Shown here: positions 3,001 to 15,000 of the stretch, piece by piece | Numbering within the stretch: the first letter of the stretch is position 1 | Layout: every line of letters begins with the position of its first letter | Assembly: GCA_963727895.1 (NCBI GenBank) | Contig: CAVSHT010000014.1 | Span: 1 to 64,000, forward strand | From: an uncultured Methanosarcinaceae archaeon | GTDB taxonomy: Archaea; Halobacteriota; Methanosarcinia; Methanosarcinales; Methanosarcinaceae | DNA length: 64,000 nt | Reading direction: 5' to 3' | Position numbers: made by a program

Positions 3001-6000
3001 CAGAATGTATTCCATATTTTCTTGCCTCGTACGAACAAGTACTTACAACCCCCCTGCCTGATCCGTCCTTAGGGTCAGAACCAACAATAACTGGTAATCC
3101 CTTCAGTTCTGGTCGTTCTCTTATCTCCACGGACGCAAAAAAGCTGTCCATATCTACATGGAGGATTATCCGCCTATCAAAATTATTTATTTCAAGATTG
3201 GAGGCAGGCATTATTGTAAAATAGTATAGAACATGTAAATAAGGCTTGAGAAAGTAGGATGAAAGTATTAACATTTTTTCAAAAAAGGGCAGTGTGCCGA
3301 TTTTGCTATGAGAGTACATGAGAAAAATATCCTCACGTACTTTCATGTCAAATCAAAAGTTTCCCTTTTCAACCATTTTTATAAAAATATTTTATGAAAC
3401 GTTCCGCTTTTTGTTTCGAATCTTATCGAAAAATCGTATTACAACGTTTGATTAAAAACACAACCGGCTGAAGACATCATACCTCAAATTATTTACTTTT
3501 ATTTTCGTTATTTTTCGTTACAAGAGTTAAAGAATGTGTGAGCATTTCGATATGCCAAATATACAATAAATTAGAAAGTATCGACCTCGGAAGAACTATT
3601 CAAAGTTTAAAACATGTAAATCCGACCAATCCAGACCCGATACAATTCGAAATAAATTCGAATTTTTTTAAGGAAAATCTTTTTTCAATCAAGTCTGAAC
3701 AAAGGTTTTTTTAAAAATTATTCGAAATGGAAAATATACACATTCTACATAAGGAGACGTTTAGAAAAACACAATTTCAGCCACAATTTATGAATAAATT
3801 CGAATAATTTTTTAAAATATTTCGTTAAGATTTCGTTAAAATCGCTTATTTATCAATTAAAAGTGTCTCATATTGTTGAAATTTACTTTTTATATACTCA
3901 AAAAACCTTTTTTACTTGCTGTAATTACAAGGAAAAAGTTATAATTCCTCAATTGAAACTTATTGTGACCAAGTCACGTACTTTACTAAATTAATTTCAA
4001 AATTCATTTTCTTTTTTTCATTTTTAATTATTTTATTTTATATATTCTACGCTAACCGTATTAAATTTAGACTATTTTTAGTTAATTCTTAACTTTAATC
4101 TTAGACGACTTTTCTTTTTATCGTCAGGATTTCATGAGATCCTTGTTTTTGCTTTCAACCTTCTTTCGGGCTTGTTCGTTACGCAGTTACGGTCTGTTCC
4201 GGTATTCCTGTCATCCATGCAGGCAGTTCTTCATCTGGGATTTGTCTTGCAAAAATTAATCTTAGTTCTTTTCTTCCATGGTCTGCTTTGTCGATGAATA
4301 TATCATTGGCTTGGCATCTCTTCTCAGCAGCTTCAAACACGTCACGTTTTAGTTTTCTCAGATTCTTCATGGATTCCGGCTGGTACTCATCAGGCAGATA
4401 ATTCTCAACAAATTTTTTAAAATCCCTTGAATCTAGTATTCTAGTATCAATATTAGCAAAAGGTGAAACTACTTTAGGAAGGTCAGTATTGTTTTTCATG
4501 TACTCAATGAGAAAATCAGCGCGAATTTCTGTGATATTTTTAGAAGGTGCTACAAGTGATCTATCAATAAGTTCAGGCTTTAATGTTGTGTTTATTTTAG
4601 AGACCATGTCGTATAGCATGGTTATTTGTTCAGGAATTGTAGCTTCTCTCTCGTCATCGTCATAAGAATAGTCATCAATTCCTAAAACAGTTTCAATTTC
4701 TGCAAGCCTTTGAACTGGTCTGATTTCGGTAGTTGCAAGCCTTGCGTCGAACGAAATATCCAAGTTCTTCTTTAAAAACAGTTTGAACTTCTTTTCTGTA
4801 CTCTTGTCTCTTTCAGGAGGTATAAATTGTATCCCTTGATTGCATTTGAGAAGTCATCAATCAGAAAAAAGCTCTTGAATTTTGCAGGGATGTAGTCGGC
4901 GAGGCTCATATAATCACTCCTGCAAATAAAAACAGTCAACAGCGATGCTAGGGTTAAGTATATATGGTAAAATGTCTGAATTTATCATGTCTAGTACACT
5001 CCTAATGAAGGGGTCAATGGGGCTCTTTCTTGCCAGGCAGGGCCCTATTACTATTATCTTTTCATCGTATATACGGTTTTTAAGTTCTTTCATTGTGATT
5101 TTTCACATTCTCATAATGCTTTTACAACAAGTTCTTCTTTCTCAGTGTCCCATGTTACCTTAACGTCTCCTTCTTTTAGTCCTATTTTCTCAGCTATGCT
5201 TTTCTTGATGTACAAGTTCAATGCTCCCGATTTAGCCACGGTTAAATTAGCGACTCCTGTTTCTAAAGTCATGATTTATATTAACGCATTAAATTACTTA
5301 AAGATTTCGAATATTTCAGTTATTCTTAATATACCCGATAAGTTTGATTAGTTTGATATCTCTAATATATAGAATTTATCTGATAAATCGGAGATATCAA
5401 ACATGATAACTGTACAATATGTTTGGGAATCCCTTAAAACCGTTAACGAAGTCGTTGACGTTTTTGAGACATGTATTGACTTCGGACTGAACTCCCTACA
5501 TCAAAAAAGATTGCCTCAAAATGGCAGTTGAAGAGAAACTCGGTGGATCTCCGGGGGCGGGATTCTGAGATACTTCAAAATCTTACGTCGATTATTGGGG
5601 GCAAGCTGCCGTGATCGTTCCGGGTCAATGTCTGGGCAGAATTACCGGTTGTTTTTCAGATTGCCCTTTGATCAAATGCGCTTACAGGAGAGCTTGAGTA
5701 TGAAGTTAAACACTAAACGAACTTTACTTTCCCTTGCTGGACTTGCCCTTTCAGCGCAAAACGCACTTGCCGCGAGTGGTTCGCTTGGCCTATCAAGTTT
5801 TACAAATGGGATGTCAAACCCGTTGGATGGTCTAGGCGATGCAAAACCAATCATGGTTGAAGTTCTGCTTCTTGTGATTGGGGTTTTTGTTGTATCATGC
5901 TTGATTGGTGTATTTGGTTCTGGATCAGTTGCTAACGCGGGTAATTTCATGCACAATGCTTCACTTCGGAGCCGGGGAATAACGGGAATTATCTTGGTGG

Positions 6001-12000: not shown

Positions 12001-15000
12001 AATCCTCAGAACATGTTAAGCCGTGGAAACGCCATTTGTTGGGCGCATGAGAGTTTAATTGCTGAGGATGGATCTATTAAGATTCAGGCAAAGAAATATG
12101 ATGGAAACTTTGGGAACCAAACACAGGACCATTACTTCTCAGTTGTTCAATGGGCGGGAATGTTAACAGCTGCACCAGAATTTACAGATATTAAAGTCCA
12201 CCATAACAATGACGTGGATGTATCTGCCATGCTTGGGAATGAAAGTTATGGTTTTGAGTATGAACATCCAGAAAGTCACGACCACGTAGAGCTTGTGGAG
12301 AAATTGAAGCGTGACATGGCTAAATATGACCACGTCGTGTTCATCGGGTCAAGAGCTAATATGGTACAACTCAAGCACGCTGTAGGTGATCATGCGTTCC
12401 AACGTGGAGATCAGGTTAAAGCTTGGCTGGATCAAAACATCGACAATTATCAACGGAACATCAATAGCGGGAGACCGATGGAAGAATCCCAACCCGAGCT
12501 TGAGCAAATAAAAGAAAAGACTCTGGAAGAAAACGCAGAAGCAGAACCAAACCAAGGGATAATATCAAGCACAGAAGACGCTAAAAACGTAACAGCCATG
12601 CAAGAATTTTCCCAAGAGGATTATGCAAAATTTGAATTATTAGCAAAGGAATCAAACTCGACAACTGAAGATTTCATAAAAGTATGTGCTATGAGAGGAT
12701 TTTTAGGGATGTGGATAGATATGAAAAGGGAATAATTTCCCATTTTTTTAATTTTACATCGGTTTTGACATCGAAACATCGATAGCGGGAGACCGATGAT
12801 TGAAGAGAGTAACACGAATAGCGCAGAGCGTGATATTAAAATAGAGATGTGAATAAAAGAAAACGACATCAGGATGCCCAAAAATGGCTTCGAAAAAAAG
12901 GAGGCAGGAGAACCGGAACACCGACAAACTAATCCGGTGTAAGGGTAGTTTGGCCGAGTTTAAGGTCTAAAAACCCGTCTTTCCAAACGGTACTTATCTA
13001 TCAATAATCTTCAATCGATTATTAGTAAAGATTTACGTATTTTCACGTGGTTGCGTTGGTTTAAGCTGAAGTTATATTTCAGATGTGCTTGAACTCTCGC
13101 TTAAGTACTCTTTAAATGGATCAAAAAAAGGAAAAATTAATTTTGAAATGCAACTTTTGCTTTATGACCGCAAACAGCGAGACCTCTCACAAAAAAATCC
13201 AATTCCGCCCTGCTGTGGAATTCCTTTGTTTGTATTTCCCCATGTAAATTCTTGAATTCGGCTGTCCACATTTTGGTTCACCTAGCTATTATATATGATG
13301 ATATTACTATAAAACTTAGTTATTCTGCTTCATTTTTCTAGTTCGTTTATGGGTTAGGTTTTTTTCTATGTTCGATCTTTGATGATATAATCGCAGGTTG
13401 AAGAAGGACAAGTCCATCCAGATTTAACAAAACGTTGCTTACCATCTATTATTTCTCGAATATAATTTCTCTTTAAGTATTCTCCACATTTTGGACATAA
13501 TAGTTTTGGAGTTGCACCGTTTTGCCCCTGTCGACGCTTTTTATTTTTTCTATTCTTTTCAAGGGCATGTTGTTCTTTTTGTTTTTTAAATGTTCTCCAC
13601 AGAGCCATTTGAGTAATTCTTTTTCCGGTTTCTTCAGATAGTGTTTTTGCTATATCTGAAACATACATGCTAGATTCTCTCATTTTCAATGCTTTTTGGA
13701 TAAGAACTGGATCATCAATAGTTGTATAAGTCATTTTAGTTAGTCTCAATTTATAATCTTCATAGTATACGATGCAGTCAATGGTATTTGTACTAAGTAG
13801 TATACTTTAGATCTTTTGTGGTATACTATAAAGTAAAACTATTACAAAAAAGAAATTTATATAATTTGATGCTCTTGCTAAAAATGGATCACAAAAGAAA
13901 AAGAGAAAAATCATGAATGTAAAATTCAAAACATGGAAGTTCTGAATCAATCTTGAACTCCATATTTTAAATTAAAAAGTGACTTATGAATTTTTAGTGA
14001 CTTATGATTTTTTAATAAGTTCGTCATTCATTATTTCTGCGTGGTATTCATTAAGGAATCGCAGTTTACCGCTGCTGATTGAATACATAATGGCATAGTT
14101 GACCAAAGAAGACTCATCGGGAAAGCTACCGCTTGCAATGAGTTATTCGACTTTATGCATCACGTAATTTTGGAATTCAATTTCAATCACTGTAGTTACT
14201 TTTCTTGCTCTTCTTGTTATTTCAAACACCTACTAAATTTTGAGCGCAACAAAAGATAATAGGAAAAGCAAAAACAAAATCAGGCAGAAACTTTCTGCCT
14301 TAAGTGAACTCTTCTCCATTCAGCTTCAATAATCTCAGGTGTGGCAATCATAGATTCTTTACCAGGCCAGGTTATTACAAACAATTCAGGATCTTTGCTG
14401 TATTGGATTCTTGCACCGTCCCTGAGCATTTGTTTGAAGATGTGATTTCTCCATTCAAGACAGGTCATGACTTGTGGTTTTTCATTCATGTTCCAGGTTT
14501 TATGCTGGATTGCTATATTTTGTTTTTGTGATGTTCCCATTTTCATTTTGTTGCGCTCCATTATCTTCTATCTTTTGGCTTTTAGTTGCTATTAACTATA
14601 AGTAATATAATCTACTTTTATAAATACTTAACGCTATTAGCAACTAAAAGCTATAAATAGATAGAAAGACATCTGCAATATGTGATCATATGAAAGAAAA
14701 TAAGGAAAAACCAAGAACTGAAAATAAAGCAAGATTCGCAAAAGAGTATACAGATGATGATTTTATAAAAGCATTAAAAGAATGTCAAGAGGAGTCGACA
14801 AGTTCAGCTTCCGAAGTAGCTGAAAAAGTAGGATGTAGCCCGCGGTATGCGAAAGATAGACTTATACTGTTAGCAGATCAAAAGAAAATAGAAAAGAAAA
14901 TGAAAGGTAATGCGTGGGGATTCAGACCCTAAGCACTACCTTACTTCAATATTCACTCCTTTTTGCAGCTGCAATTATCCTTATTCTAAACTATTTTAAG

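Follow-up and report, generated by a model that had tools for sequence, protein, structure and literature searches.

A probable type IV secretion-like operon in Methanosarcina, with relatives in tailed archaeal viruses

The stretch of DNA analysed here (the window; 64,000 nucleotides) carries, at 5700-12735, a tight operon of six co-directional genes related to type IV secretion systems (T4SS) in a Methanosarcina genome. Together with the divergent gene upstream, this operon probably represents a stand-alone copy, recently damaged, of a conserved module that encodes a minimal machine of the T4SS kind, centred on a VirB4 ATPase. The genes encode, in order, a pilin-like protein, a beta-helix surface protein, a small membrane protein, a VirB6-like protein, a fusion of a VirB3-like hairpin with the N-terminal part of VirB4, and a fusion of the remainder of VirB4 with a PD-(D/E)xK-like domain (Table 1). 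The T4SS-like reading of the initial annotation is supported and sharpened by these results. The further claim of a plasmid-borne conjugation module is not supported. Neither a PF02534 coupling protein nor a PF03432 relaxase was detected, the copy is damaged, and relatives are integral to complete genomes of tailed viruses.

Gene organization and lesions in the window copy

The stop and start codons of neighbouring module genes overlap or are adjacent, and the open reading frames of the window span 5700-6017, 6077-6463, 6542-7738, 8069-9049, 9049-9918 and 9919-12735. The shared direction of the genes agrees with the earlier description, which counted five of them and missed the small membrane protein gene. 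The metagenome relative L046, which is 86% identical to the window copy, served as the reference for intact reading frames. As a codon comparison with this relative shows, the operon is under strong purifying selection, with dN/dS values of 0.03-0.12 (0.033 for the pilin-like gene, 0.087 for the beta-helix gene when read through its stops, and 0.054 for the ATPase gene).

Table 1. Features of the operon and its upstream neighbour in the window
Feature	Position	Strand	Remarks
Divergent upstream gene	4179..4763	-	194 aa; no family match; recurrent neighbour of the module; multi-copy in the genome
Pilin-like gene	5700..6077	+	signal peptide with A-x-A site, then two hydrophobic helices
Secreted right-handed beta-helix protein (pectate-lyase / tailspike / disaggregatase-like)	6077..7879	+	broken by TAA codons
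Small membrane protein gene	7876..8139	+	87 aa in the window; 64 aa in L046
VirB6/TrbL-like polytopic membrane protein	8069..9049	+	326 aa; signal peptide and about six TM helices; intact
VirB3/PrgI-like 2-TM hairpin fused to VirB4 N-terminal subdomain	9049..9918	+	289 aa; intact
VirB4-family ATPase without first subdomain, with C-terminal extension	9919..12735	+	intact
PD-(D/E)xK (restriction-endonuclease-like) domain	12121..12483	+	ATPase C-terminus, residues ~735-855

Lesions are found in three of the six genes (pilin-like, beta-helix and small membrane), while the three core genes are intact, and the window copy may, therefore, be inactive. The pilin-like frame ends at 6017 through a 1-nt deletion, and the 105 aa annotated initially represent a truncated product, although its signal peptide and two helices stand; the undamaged frame of L046 encodes 125 aa and runs to the TAA at 6075-6077, where it meets the start codon of the beta-helix gene. 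In two public metagenome runs, the only contigs that cover this site have one more A behind 6014 and so keep the frame open; the truncation may therefore stem from the assembly or represent strain variation. Two TAA codons, 6461-6463 and 7736-7738, interrupt the beta-helix gene in frame; L046 has CAA and CAG in their place, and the frame remains open and conserved past each of them, including the C-terminal membrane anchor. The two frames annotated as g03727 and g03728 do encode the beta-helix protein, but as a single gene rather than as separate ORFs. In the small membrane gene, a 2-nt insertion has removed the stop; the gene of L046 overlaps both the beta-helix and the VirB6-like genes by ATGA; a gene of 74-87 aa occupies the equivalent position in four other loci (L049, L051, L052 and L053).

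In L045, L049, L051 and L052, the gene that precedes the pilin gene falls in the same cluster as the divergent gene, and the 5' end of L046 carries DNA 91% identical to it. The divergent gene has at least seven paralogous copies, with 83-86% nucleotide identity, on contigs C3, C4 and C14, and recovered no match in Pfam or PHROG searches.

A second, broken copy of the module flanked by IS6 elements does exist, at G000:C4:15072-17727 (C4:15072-19526 in the initial annotation). It matches only 7365-12439 of the window, at 88% identity, its ATPase gene has three in-frame stops, and it is more degraded than the window copy; one IS6 flank occupies C4:14095-14951 and the other 22601-23456, and a fragment lies at 20827-20897. 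RPA and PolIV genes adjoin the window copy, as reported, with the adjoining PolIV gene broken and an intact duplicate at 34171-35340. The Orc1/Cdc6 gene invoked for a plasmid-like contig is present at C14:68892-70148, but the plasmid nature of C14 was not confirmed: a comparison of the contig ends revealed no overlap, and the contig is IS-rich and includes broken genes as well as genes of housekeeping type and one for an S-layer protein.

A VirB4 motor split over two genes and its partners

The profile scores given for the ATPase in the initial annotation were reproduced exactly: VirB4_plasma (Mbov_0397; E 1.2e-44, 152.3 bits, residues 23-614), CD1110 (3.8e-30), CedB (2.5e-17) and VirB4_CagE (3.9e-15) in NCBIfam, and AAA_10 (4.8e-8) and the TraG P-loop (6.2e-6) in Pfam, all of them below the curated cut-offs, and far below those of the families (152 vs. 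590 bits for VirB4_plasma). The best NCBIfam matches are all conjugal VirB4 families; CedD also matched, at E 2.4e-8. Against the PDB, the ATPase profile matched the VirB4 structure 4ag5 at E 2.2e-24, with DptH (7es4; 4.9e-8) as the runner-up, and a Walker A motif (GNSGSGKT) is found at residues 284-291. The ATPase belongs, by this profile comparison, to the VirB4 family.

The ATPase aligns to positions 279-876 of VirB4_plasma and 190-735 of CD1110, while the Methanoperedens members of the 289-aa family align to positions 4-252 (E 1.6e-5 and 2.4e-5) and 3-161 of the same two models. Given this collinearity, of positions 4-252 followed by 279-876, VirB4 is split across two genes: the first encodes a VirB3-like hairpin (residues ~18-81) joined to the first VirB4 subdomain (residues ~95-289), and the second encodes the rest of VirB4 with the PD-(D/E)xK-like domain. 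The 289-aa protein matched PrgI at E 0.0021, and at E<=1 PrgI was recovered in 4 of 16 family members and TcpE in 6 of 16; the PrgI/VirB3-like assignment of g03730 is supported, with a VirB4 N-terminal part in addition. The predicted complex of the 289-aa protein and the ATPase reached an ipSAE of 0.81, against 0.00 for the best control. Among solved complexes, 116 of 157 attain this mark, as do 2 of the 215 mismatched pairs. Contact agreement was at least 69% over three runs, with a partner pLDDT of at least 75, and ATPase strands 103-109 pair in the model with strands 174-180 of the partner. This good score may reflect a likeness to solved VirB4, the two proteins being halves of a known one.

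The C-terminal nuclease fold proposed for the ATPase was upheld by an AF2 model (pLDDT 88.5, pTM 0.85), by the top 11 VIA rows (Z 8.6-6.9), which include the nucleases Can2, R.BspD6I, Cdn1, Hjc and Bax1, and by the conserved residues H738, D767, E780, E782 and K795. Of 25 archaeal and viral ATPases, 23 retain these residues, and two bacterial ones lack the domain; it also occurs as a stand-alone ORF of 121-135 aa in four genomes (G012, G126, G002 and G128).

The six-TM, VirB6-like assignment of g03729 has been strengthened. Its family has 199 representatives at E<=1e-3, and an alignment of 111 sequences gave an AF2 model with pLDDT 86, against 55-59 in earlier models, and the only long structural matches of this model are VirB6/TrwI and DotA (VIA: 7o3v_F, Z 8.0, 215 of 261 residues aligned; DotA, Z 7.3, 200 aligned). 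In a Foldseek search of 350,542 chains, TrwI/VirB6 ranked first, yet at E 0.51, and the fold matches are, for a predicted helical protein, middling. In the ESM Atlas, every one of the closest clusters that bear a name is TrbL/VirB6 (scores 0.84-0.90), although Pfam TrbL matched none of the 111 family sequences. Profile searches of the PDB with the pilin-like, VirB6-like and VirB3/VirB4 N-terminal proteins returned no match. The pilin-like protein is so assigned mainly from its predicted topology, together with weak Pfam T4SS_pilin matches in 2 of 24 family members (E 0.0018 and 0.032).

The beta-helix protein has 605 aa in the intact form of L046. Its C-terminal part comprises a conserved domain and a membrane anchor, and the protein matches PHROG tail spike at E 3.8e-11. 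Its proposed likeness to disaggregatase is borne out in the close Methanosarcina relatives L022, L023 and L024, where Disaggr_assoc (Pfam "Disaggregatase related") scored 80-93 bits (E 1e-22 to 4e-26), above the cut-off of 22.6 bits. The beta-helix is present in 13 of 21 relatives, and the other eight are short forms with the C-terminal domain alone.

Distribution and genomic settings

The synteny of the module is found in more than 30 loci of Methanosarcinaceae, Methanoperedens and metagenomes, at 20-90% identity, and is kept in 19-22 of 25 clustered loci and 11 of 16 IMG/VR loci. Among the 392 species genomes of the class, 30 gave a match; the family of the window accounts for 13 of them (from 176 genomes) and a second family for 12 (from 53). 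This patchy distribution is like that of mobile elements. Across these loci, the split VirB4 pair is always accompanied by a VirB6-like protein, a small two-helix protein with a signal peptide, and a secreted, membrane-anchored protein, often with a beta-helix or disaggregatase-type glycanase; the mobile elements that carry it in Methanosarcinaceae and Methanoperedens (MAG contigs L038, L039 and L041) are tailed viruses, replicons with Orc1 or primase, and small islands in the chromosome.

The ten large IMG/VR records with the module all encode a large terminase, and three are 100% complete. In tailed-virus genomes, the module sits inside the head and tail gene region: in L065 it follows the small and large terminases (the latter at E 5.8e-103) and precedes the portal (E 2.7e-40), in G134:C111 it lies between the large terminase plus a MuF-like gene and further large genes, and in L064 and L076 it has a MuF-like gene upstream, with Neck1 and tail terminator genes downstream. 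No major clade of the ATPase tree lacks virus-borne copies, and intact modules free of any virus genes are found in Methanosarcina chromosomes and also beside Orc1 or primase replicons. The tblastn matches to plasmids in PLSDB, described earlier as all bacterial, now comprise 91 records, three of them from the archaeon Haladaptatus. The closest bacterial plasmids, Peribacillus pOM18 and one of Pontibacillus, have VirB4 genes of 658 and 621 aa, each preceded by a gene of 227 or 274 aa; in Pontibacillus, a pilin-like gene also lies upstream and a gene for a cell-wall hydrolase downstream.

Related systems and possible function

The best ATPase matches are to the conjugation systems of monoderm or wall-less bacteria (MPF-FATA; Mbov_0397 and CD1110). 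In pCF10, the gene order is prgH-prgI-prgJ, which corresponds to the VirB6-like, VirB3-like and VirB4 order of the module, and PrgI or TcpE weakly matches the VirB3-like hairpin; the Bacillota plasmids likewise combine a short VirB4, after a gene of 227-274 aa, with a pilin-like gene and a wall hydrolase. The module differs in its archaeal and archaeal-virus hosts, in scores far below the cut-off, in the C-terminal nuclease domain, absent from the two bacterial ATPases compared, and in a hydrolase that is a beta-helix or disaggregatase-type glycanase rather than a peptidoglycan hydrolase. It also differs in lacking a detected coupling protein (PF02534), relaxase (PF03432) or VirB8-like protein. 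The PF02534 search recovered sub-threshold matches alone, in frames of 852 and 869 aa, which are VirB4 gene lengths, and PF03432 found nothing; the earlier statement that both components are missing is upheld for these two families, one per component. A literature search found no paper naming VirB4 in Methanosarcinales.

The Ced (CedA/CedA1/CedB) and Ted (TedA/TedB/TedC) systems of Thermoproteota are likewise minimal sets, in which a VirB4-like ATPase operates with a channel of VirB6 type and a pilin of VirB2 type and no relaxase is present; TedC and the pilin-like protein both have a signal peptide that ends in a site of the signal peptidase I type (PMC9905601). The module, by contrast, is borne by mobile elements of Methanosarcinales, its VirB3/4 is split, and it includes a glycanase and a nuclease domain fused to the ATPase; its CedB score is only 62.7 bits, where the cut-off is 700. 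Homologues of VirB4, VirB6 and VirB3, without a relaxase, are also present in thaumarchaeal ICEs and in the conjugative plasmids of Sulfolobus, archaeal elements for which dsDNA transfer has been proposed (PMC6563490). These elements pair VirB4 with VirD4/TraG where the module has a single ATPase, and they are not known from within the genomes of tailed viruses. A cluster on the Methanoperedens HMp plasmid, with "HerA helicase ORF112", has been described as membrane proteins and an ATPase with a conjugative-transfer domain that possibly extrudes DNA; it is likened to the module by this description only, two sentences without component assignments (PMC9674854).

The position within the head and tail region is suggestive of a lytic-cycle function rather than of conjugation. 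A late viral module of this type would breach or remodel the envelope of the host so that virions can leave or enter, or would instead handle viral DNA at the membrane, with holin-like small 2-TM proteins and the anchored beta-helix enzyme as a methanochondroitin depolymerase, and the window copy would be a remnant of such a virus. The tail spike match and the spread of virus-borne copies through the ATPase tree are consistent with this, but it is unlikely: no role in lysis is known for a VirB4 motor that has a nuclease domain and works with VirB3-like and VirB6-like proteins, the glycanase part is missing from 8 of 21 family members, the other five proteins gave no virion-protein homology, and the module persists intact where virus genes are lacking, in chromosomes of Methanosarcina and next to Orc1 or primase replicons.

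Defence genes are common on proviruses and plasmids, and a membrane-anchored ATPase of the FtsK/HerA type with a nuclease could intercept and cut incoming DNA at the envelope, in defence or superinfection exclusion. The conserved PD-(D/E)xK-like domain would suit such a role, as would the matches to DptH, to an anti-phage HerA model (E 5.6e-5) and, in the initial annotation, to mad8 and DndH in PADLOC. This is nevertheless improbable, as the VirB4 matches are stronger by at least 16 orders of magnitude, the other five proteins had no PADLOC match in that annotation, and the fixed order of VirB3-like, VirB6-like, pilin-like and glycanase partners is that of a T4SS and of no listed defence system. 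There is a similarly slim chance that the same machine runs in reverse, bringing DNA from neighbours into the expressing cell, as the only archaeal VirB4/VirB6/VirB2-type systems of demonstrated function import DNA with a single ATPase and no relaxase (PMC9905601), and both CedB and CedD match the motor. The monoderm conjugation models outscore CedB (152 vs. 63 bits), however, and the module travels on mobile elements, whereas Ced and Ted are described in that source as domesticated host systems, with no counterpart of the fused nuclease reported in the passages concerned.

As we infer its function, then, the T4SS-kind machine would consist of a VirB4 hexamer docked on a VirB3/VirB6 membrane platform, where it may drive the assembly of the pilin-like protein and/or, by way of the VirB6 channel, the exchange of DNA with a neighbouring cell in one direction or the other. 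Cutting of the DNA substrate would fall to the fused nuclease, in place of the missing relaxase. Precedents for such a machine in archaea are the relaxase-free Ced and Ted systems, which employ VirB4-, VirB6- and VirB2-like proteins (PMC9905601), and the thaumarchaeal ICEs, which have no relaxase either (PMC6563490). Aggregates of M. mazei, held together by methanochondroitin, are dispersed by disaggregatase (bioRxiv 10.64898/2026.10.06.756670), and the beta-helix enzyme may open the methanochondroitin or S-layer envelope, much as VirB1- or PrgK-type hydrolases act on peptidoglycan. The occurrence of intact relatives of this module within complete genomes of tailed archaeal viruses was unexpected.

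Layout and lesions of the module

The assembly that contains the window comprises 3.67 Mb in 19 contigs, with a G+C content of about 36% and a completeness of 84%. The open reading frames described in the initial annotation lie where it had placed them, and every ATPase score that it quoted was reproduced on re-search. The genes of the module are packed as an operon, in which the stop codon of the pilin-like gene adjoins the start codon of the beta-helix gene, the small sixth gene is bordered by ATGA overlaps at both ends, the VirB6-like gene overlaps the 289-aa (VirB3/VirB4N-like) gene by 1 nt, and the latter directly abuts the ATPase gene.

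A close relative on a metagenome contig (L046) has intact versions of every module gene, with 86-87% nucleotide identity to the window over the module, and it is against this copy that the lesions of the window are defined (see the table). The VirB6-like, VirB3/VirB4N-like, and ATPase genes of the window are intact and equal in length to those of L046. The beta-helix frame stays open and conserved past each TAA, including the C-terminal membrane anchor, and the dN/dS against L046 is 0.03-0.12 for every module gene when the broken genes are read through, which is why the lesions are regarded as either recent or errors. Both beta-helix TAA codons stand where L046 has glutamine codons, and may represent recent C-to-T nonsense changes, errors, or sites of read-through. 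In two metagenome DNA runs, the contigs of which derive from mixed strains, position 6014 is covered only by contigs with an extra A, which restores the pilin frame. Among the runs listed as containing the stretch, none is an RNA run. The reading of TAG as pyrrolysine rescues no broken gene, given that both beta-helix stops are TAA and that the PolIV gene is out of frame. The second copy, on contig C4 of the same genome, covers only part of the module at 88% identity, has an ATPase gene with three stops, and is placed between IS6 copies.

Coordinates of the features in the window (contig C14) and in related loci
Feature	Location	Strand	Observation
Module	5700-12735		six-gene operon
Lesion 1, pilin-like gene		+	1-nt deletion, cutting the second hydrophobic helix; 105 aa vs 125 aa in L046
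Lesion 2, beta-helix gene	6461-6463	+	TAA, where L046 has CAA
Lesion 3, beta-helix gene	7736-7738	+	TAA, where L046 has CAG
Lesion 4, small gene	end of gene	+	2-nt insertion vs L046
VirB6-like/289-aa gene overlap	9049		
289-aa gene end/ATPase gene start	9918/9919		
Extent of the C4 copy	window-equivalent 7365-12439		
Duplicate, module side	2-3417		RPA and PolIV
Broken PolIV	2232-3346		
Duplicate, other side	31940-35482		RPA and PolIV
Intact PolIV	34171-35340		
Region of very low G+C	13800-22000		
194-aa upstream gene	4179-4763	-	
Paralogue of the 194-aa gene	C14:37192-38005		
AEP-TOTE primase protein	L059:16931-18847 (= C14:100931-102847)		638 aa
PHROG family 98 proteins	L064:9535-9942; L066:1057-1422; L067:5561-6339; L077:4659-5036		beside the module in viral contigs

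No tRNA genes were found in the 64-kb window, no direct repeats flank the module as the mark of an integration site, and the ends of C14 do not overlap one another. On C14, Pfam gave no match to a terminase, portal, capsid, or tail protein that would mark a tailed (Caudoviricetes) provirus, and two queries recovered no large terminase from the genome, which is 84% complete; related loci do have such genes beside the module.

A 3.4-kb segment of C14 with the RPA and PolIV genes is duplicated at 97-99% identity, and the module-side duplicate is short of approximately 120 bp, which breaks its PolIV gene. In the region of very low G+C (0.28-0.33), ORFs of at least 110 aa are almost absent, and the whole of C14 has just 65 of these, covering about half of its 107 kb. 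Many genes are split (UbiA and a P-type ATPase, for example), and there are many copies of IS6, Mutator, and IS4, with the IS6 element returning approximately 89 BLAST matches genome-wide. The contig also encodes, near Mutator and IS6 transposases, a protein with a primase domain of the AEP-TOTE type (E 1.1e-26), which belongs to the TOTE conflict system. Upstream of the module, an unannotated 194-aa gene, which recurs in this position in other loci, matches nothing in Pfam or PHROG and has at least seven paralogues in the genome (83-86% nucleotide identity), including copies on C3 and C4; its role could be regulatory, or it could be a gene associated with an element.

The motor and its membrane and surface partners

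A profile of 12 ATPase sequences matches the VirB4 structure PDB 4ag5 at E 2.2e-24 over 381 positions, the next-best PDB match being DptH (E 4.9e-8), and each of the 25 ATPases aligned from archaea and viruses retains Walker A. Judged by these alignments, the C-terminal P-loop domain is homologous to the VirB4 CTD, with the protein being of the VirB4/TrbE type at the superfamily level. The equivalog cut-offs of four NCBIfam models are not reached by the ATPase (152.3 bits vs 590 for VirB4_plasma, 104.8 vs 325 for conju_CD1110, 62.7 vs 700 for CedB, and 55.2 vs 643 for TIGR00929).

The ATPase matches positions 279-876 of the 894-position VirB4 model of the Mycoplasma ICE (NF045975) and positions 190-735 of the CD1110 model, and, as it starts at position 279 of the former, it is without the first VirB4 subdomain. 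Two of the 16 members of the 289-aa family, both from Methanoperedens, match positions 4-252 of NF045975 (E 1.6e-5 and 2.4e-5), and one of the 16 matches positions 3-161 of the CD1110 model. The N-terminal domain of VirB4 is present, split over the 289-aa gene and the ATPase gene, as it is in the nearest bacterial plasmids, where VirB4 proteins of 658 and 621 aa follow genes of 227 and 274 aa. When the soluble part of the 289-aa protein was modelled together with ATPase residues 1-640, the predicted complex had an ipSAE of 0.81 (best control 0.00), a mark attained by 116 of 157 solved complexes and by two of 215 mismatched pairs. The contacts agree by at least 69% between runs, the partner pLDDT is at least 75, and strands pair between the chains. 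Two halves of a single domain would be expected to pair in this way, and the score may reflect a likeness to solved VirB4.

The N-terminal hairpin of the 289-aa protein fits VirB3/PrgI in its position directly before VirB4 and in its 2-TM topology; in pCF10, the gene order is PrgH-PrgI-PrgJ. PrgI matches the window hairpin at E 0.0021 and 19 bits, under the cut-off of 27, and weak matches at E<=1 were obtained for PrgI in four and for TcpE in six of the 16 members. When the family profiles were compared by hhalign with individual proteins from bacteria (the proteins encoded before VirB4 in Peribacillus and Pontibacillus, a TrbL protein, and an Mbov_0395 pilin), the E values were 0.06-0.34, which are uninformative because these templates have a Neff of 1; the 289-aa family and the Peribacillus protein align collinearly over 151 columns, without reaching significance. 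When searched against the PDB sequences with hmmsearch, the VirB3/VirB4N, VirB6-like, and pilin-like profiles returned no VirB3, VirB4, VirB6, or pilin at E<=10. Neither the upstream protein nor the VirB3-like, VirB6-like, and pilin-like proteins matched any PHROG.

At the other end of the ATPase, residues of about 735-855 form a domain modelled at a pLDDT of 88.5, for which Foldseek found nothing under E 0.004, and the top 11 rows of an all-against-all structural search (VIA Z 8.6-6.9) include the nucleases Can2, R.BspD6I, Cdn1, Hjc, and Bax1. Of the 25 archaeal and viral ATPases, 23 retain the residues H738, D767, E780, E782, and K795, and the domain is absent from both bacterial ATPases compared. 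In the model, D767 precedes strand 2, E780 and E782 lie on strand 3, and K795 is on the following helix, rather than within a D/ExK triplet; a PD-(D/E)xK core has the order alpha-beta-beta-beta-alpha-beta, with a lysine and with acidic residues on strands 2 and 3. The domain also occurs alone, as a 121-135-aa ORF, in four genomes. A PD-(D/E)xK-like fold, and with it a putative nuclease, is moderately supported by the model.

The VirB6-like family has 199 representatives at E<=1e-3, and the window protein was modelled at a pLDDT of 86 with a 111-sequence alignment. TrwI/VirB6 (7o3v) is the first-ranked Foldseek match of this model (E 0.51), and the sole long matches in the wide structural search are TrwI (VIA Z 8.0, rmsd 5.8, 215 of 261 residues aligned) and, after it, DotA (Z 7.3, 200 residues). 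The named ESM Atlas neighbours are all TrbL families; Pfam TrbL matched none of the 111 members, and the 19 members of the family recovered by a word-based homologue search with the profile are all without Pfam domains. A Disaggr_assoc domain (E 2.5e-9) is present in one of the 111 proteins and a cohesin domain in another representative, which suggests that the channel protein is occasionally fused to surface-acting domains. The pilin-like family combines a signal peptide with an A-x-A site and two hydrophobic helices, a topology that fits all nine aligned sequences, and Pfam T4SS_pilin matches two of 24 members (E 0.0018 and 0.032; 2e-12 for the control, a Pontibacillus pilin).

The common core of the beta-helix family is a conserved C-terminal domain with a membrane anchor, to which the beta-helix is added in 13 of 21 members, the other eight being without any glycanase. 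The short form, with the C-terminal domain only, had no usable ESM Atlas match. Domains annotated as ‘Disaggregatase related’ are above the cut-off in three members, all from Methanosarcina chromosomes (L022, L023, and L024), where Disaggr_assoc (PF08480) scores 80-93 bits, against a cut-off of 22.6. This cut-off is not reached by the proteins of the window or L046, which match Pect-lyase_RHGA_epim and Beta_helix only.

Distribution and genomic contexts

Relatives were recovered from the genome contigs with a 12-row ATPase alignment; a 15-row alignment was too diverse for the pattern search, and a single ATPase as query found no relative. The public records assign these relatives to Methanosarcina, Methanosarcinaceae, Methanosarcinales, and Ca. 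Methanoperedens. The ATPase is present in 30 of the 392 species genomes of the class (E<=1e-20), concentrated in the family of the window (13/176) and one other family (12/53), with none in the 105 genomes of a third. The matches from the same genus sit in fragmented assemblies (60-490 contigs), and none of its one- or two-contig genomes, among those listed, has the ATPase. The 28 closest relatives in the protein collection come from metagenome-derived sources only (JGI, Logan, and ENA).

The module is found in small islands among host genes, as in G154, G142, and Methanosarcina sp. Ant1, where it lies by alkaline phosphatase and PsiE genes. In other loci the neighbours are of the replicon type, with Orc1/Cdc6 in L029, L036, and L039, a D5-type primase-helicase in L052 and L053, a family A polymerase in L052, and an ArdC-N protein in L039. 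The third context is that of tailed viruses, for which a scan of IMG/VR recovered 16 loci, 11 with a full or nearly full module. In the viral locus L065, the order is small terminase, large terminase (E 5.8e-103), module, and portal (E 2.7e-40), and in others, MuF-like minor head, major head, Neck1, tail terminator, tape measure, or tail spike genes lie within 10 kb. A large terminase was found in all 10 large records searched (E 1e-158 to 3e-4); CheckV rates three of these as 100% complete, and direct terminal repeats are present in three. In a MAG of the same genus, a 60-kb contig has a large terminase gene, followed by a MuF-like gene and then by the module.

In viral contigs, small proteins of PHROG family 98 (121-135 aa, E down to 4.7e-30) recur beside the module; in one case, the gene lies between those of the VirB3-like protein and the ATPase. 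L077 has an inserted DNA methyltransferase gene that separates the VirB6-like gene from the VirB3-like gene. Two bacterial bins, a Proteiniphilum MAG (L043) and a Leptospirales MAG (L045), contain a full archaeal-type module, and are probably mis-binned virus or element contigs.

An ATPase tree of 34 rows (quick LG+G4), which left out fragments, near-duplicates, and repeat contig fetches, and for which the contexts were labelled by hand, has virus-borne copies in every major clade. Chromosomal Methanosarcina copies fall beside a viral copy (SH-aLRT 99), and the sister clade of the window and L046 contains copies next to a terminase as well as copies next to a primase. As the tree is midpoint-rooted, no direction of transfer is drawn from it.

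Possible roles and significance

The evidence from homology supports a VirB4-centred, T4SS-type membrane machine, likened here to the monoderm-type conjugation systems of the MPF-FATA class. No coupling protein (VirD4/TraG) was over the cut-off of PF02534, the single family searched, in five records (three complete viruses, G179, and the genome of the window), in a search whose control gave matches in five of 14 genomes, and the single relaxase family searched, PF03432, was also absent from the five. The combination of a single ATPase, a fused putative nuclease, and no detectable coupling protein or relaxase suggests one motor that would both cut and move DNA, while the glycanase would open the Methanosarcina envelope. 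Archaeal elements are generally without relaxases, according to a paper on thaumarchaeal ICEs (PMC6563490).

The literature searches turned up no paper that names VirB4 or a T4SS, either in Methanosarcinales or in tailed viruses of archaea. A study of Methanoperedens plasmids (PMC9674854) mentions a possibly related cluster, and the T4SS and conjugation terms looked for are absent from the available portions of PMC9796341 and PMC13573593. A preprint (10.64898/2026.10.06.756670) describes a new lineage of Orc-type plasmids, with disaggregatase-related genes, from low-GC Methanosarcina, in a main text where ‘conjugati’, ‘T4SS’, and ‘VirB4’ do not occur; its supplements may bear on the point.

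The position of the module within the head and tail gene region would fit a role in the lytic cycle of the viruses, which is considered rather unlikely. The nuclease-like domain would be in keeping with defence, and the Ced/Ted systems provide archaeal precedents for the import of DNA (PMC9905601); defence is held to be very unlikely, and import equally improbable. A further-reaching reading, held to be less likely than not, is that the T4SS-like apparatus (the split VirB3/4 ATPase-nuclease fusion with the VirB6-like, pilin-like, and envelope glycanase proteins) is a conserved and selected part of the genomes of a widespread group of 48-73-kb tailed viruses of Methanosarcinales and Methanoperedens. 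In addition to transfer by virions, these viruses could then pass DNA directly between neighbouring cells inside methanochondroitin-bound aggregates, as could plasmids and islands with the same module.

If this transfer between neighbours is true, it would represent a virus/conjugative-element hybrid with a relaxase-free, nuclease-driven transfer motor. By lying among the head and tail genes of complete tailed-virus genomes, a conserved T4SS-like operon makes the boundary between virus and conjugative element less distinct, and it may also be relevant to how archaeal tailed viruses enter and leave their host cells. The architecture of a split VirB3/4 with a fused putative nuclease also suggests how archaeal systems might dispense with the relaxase and the coupling protein. 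Gene exchange is poorly understood in methanogens and methane-oxidising archaea, and a search of the literature found no conjugation-type machinery described for Methanosarcina. Given this, the module family provides a concrete, testable candidate for the movement of DNA from cell to cell in the drivers of methane fluxes.
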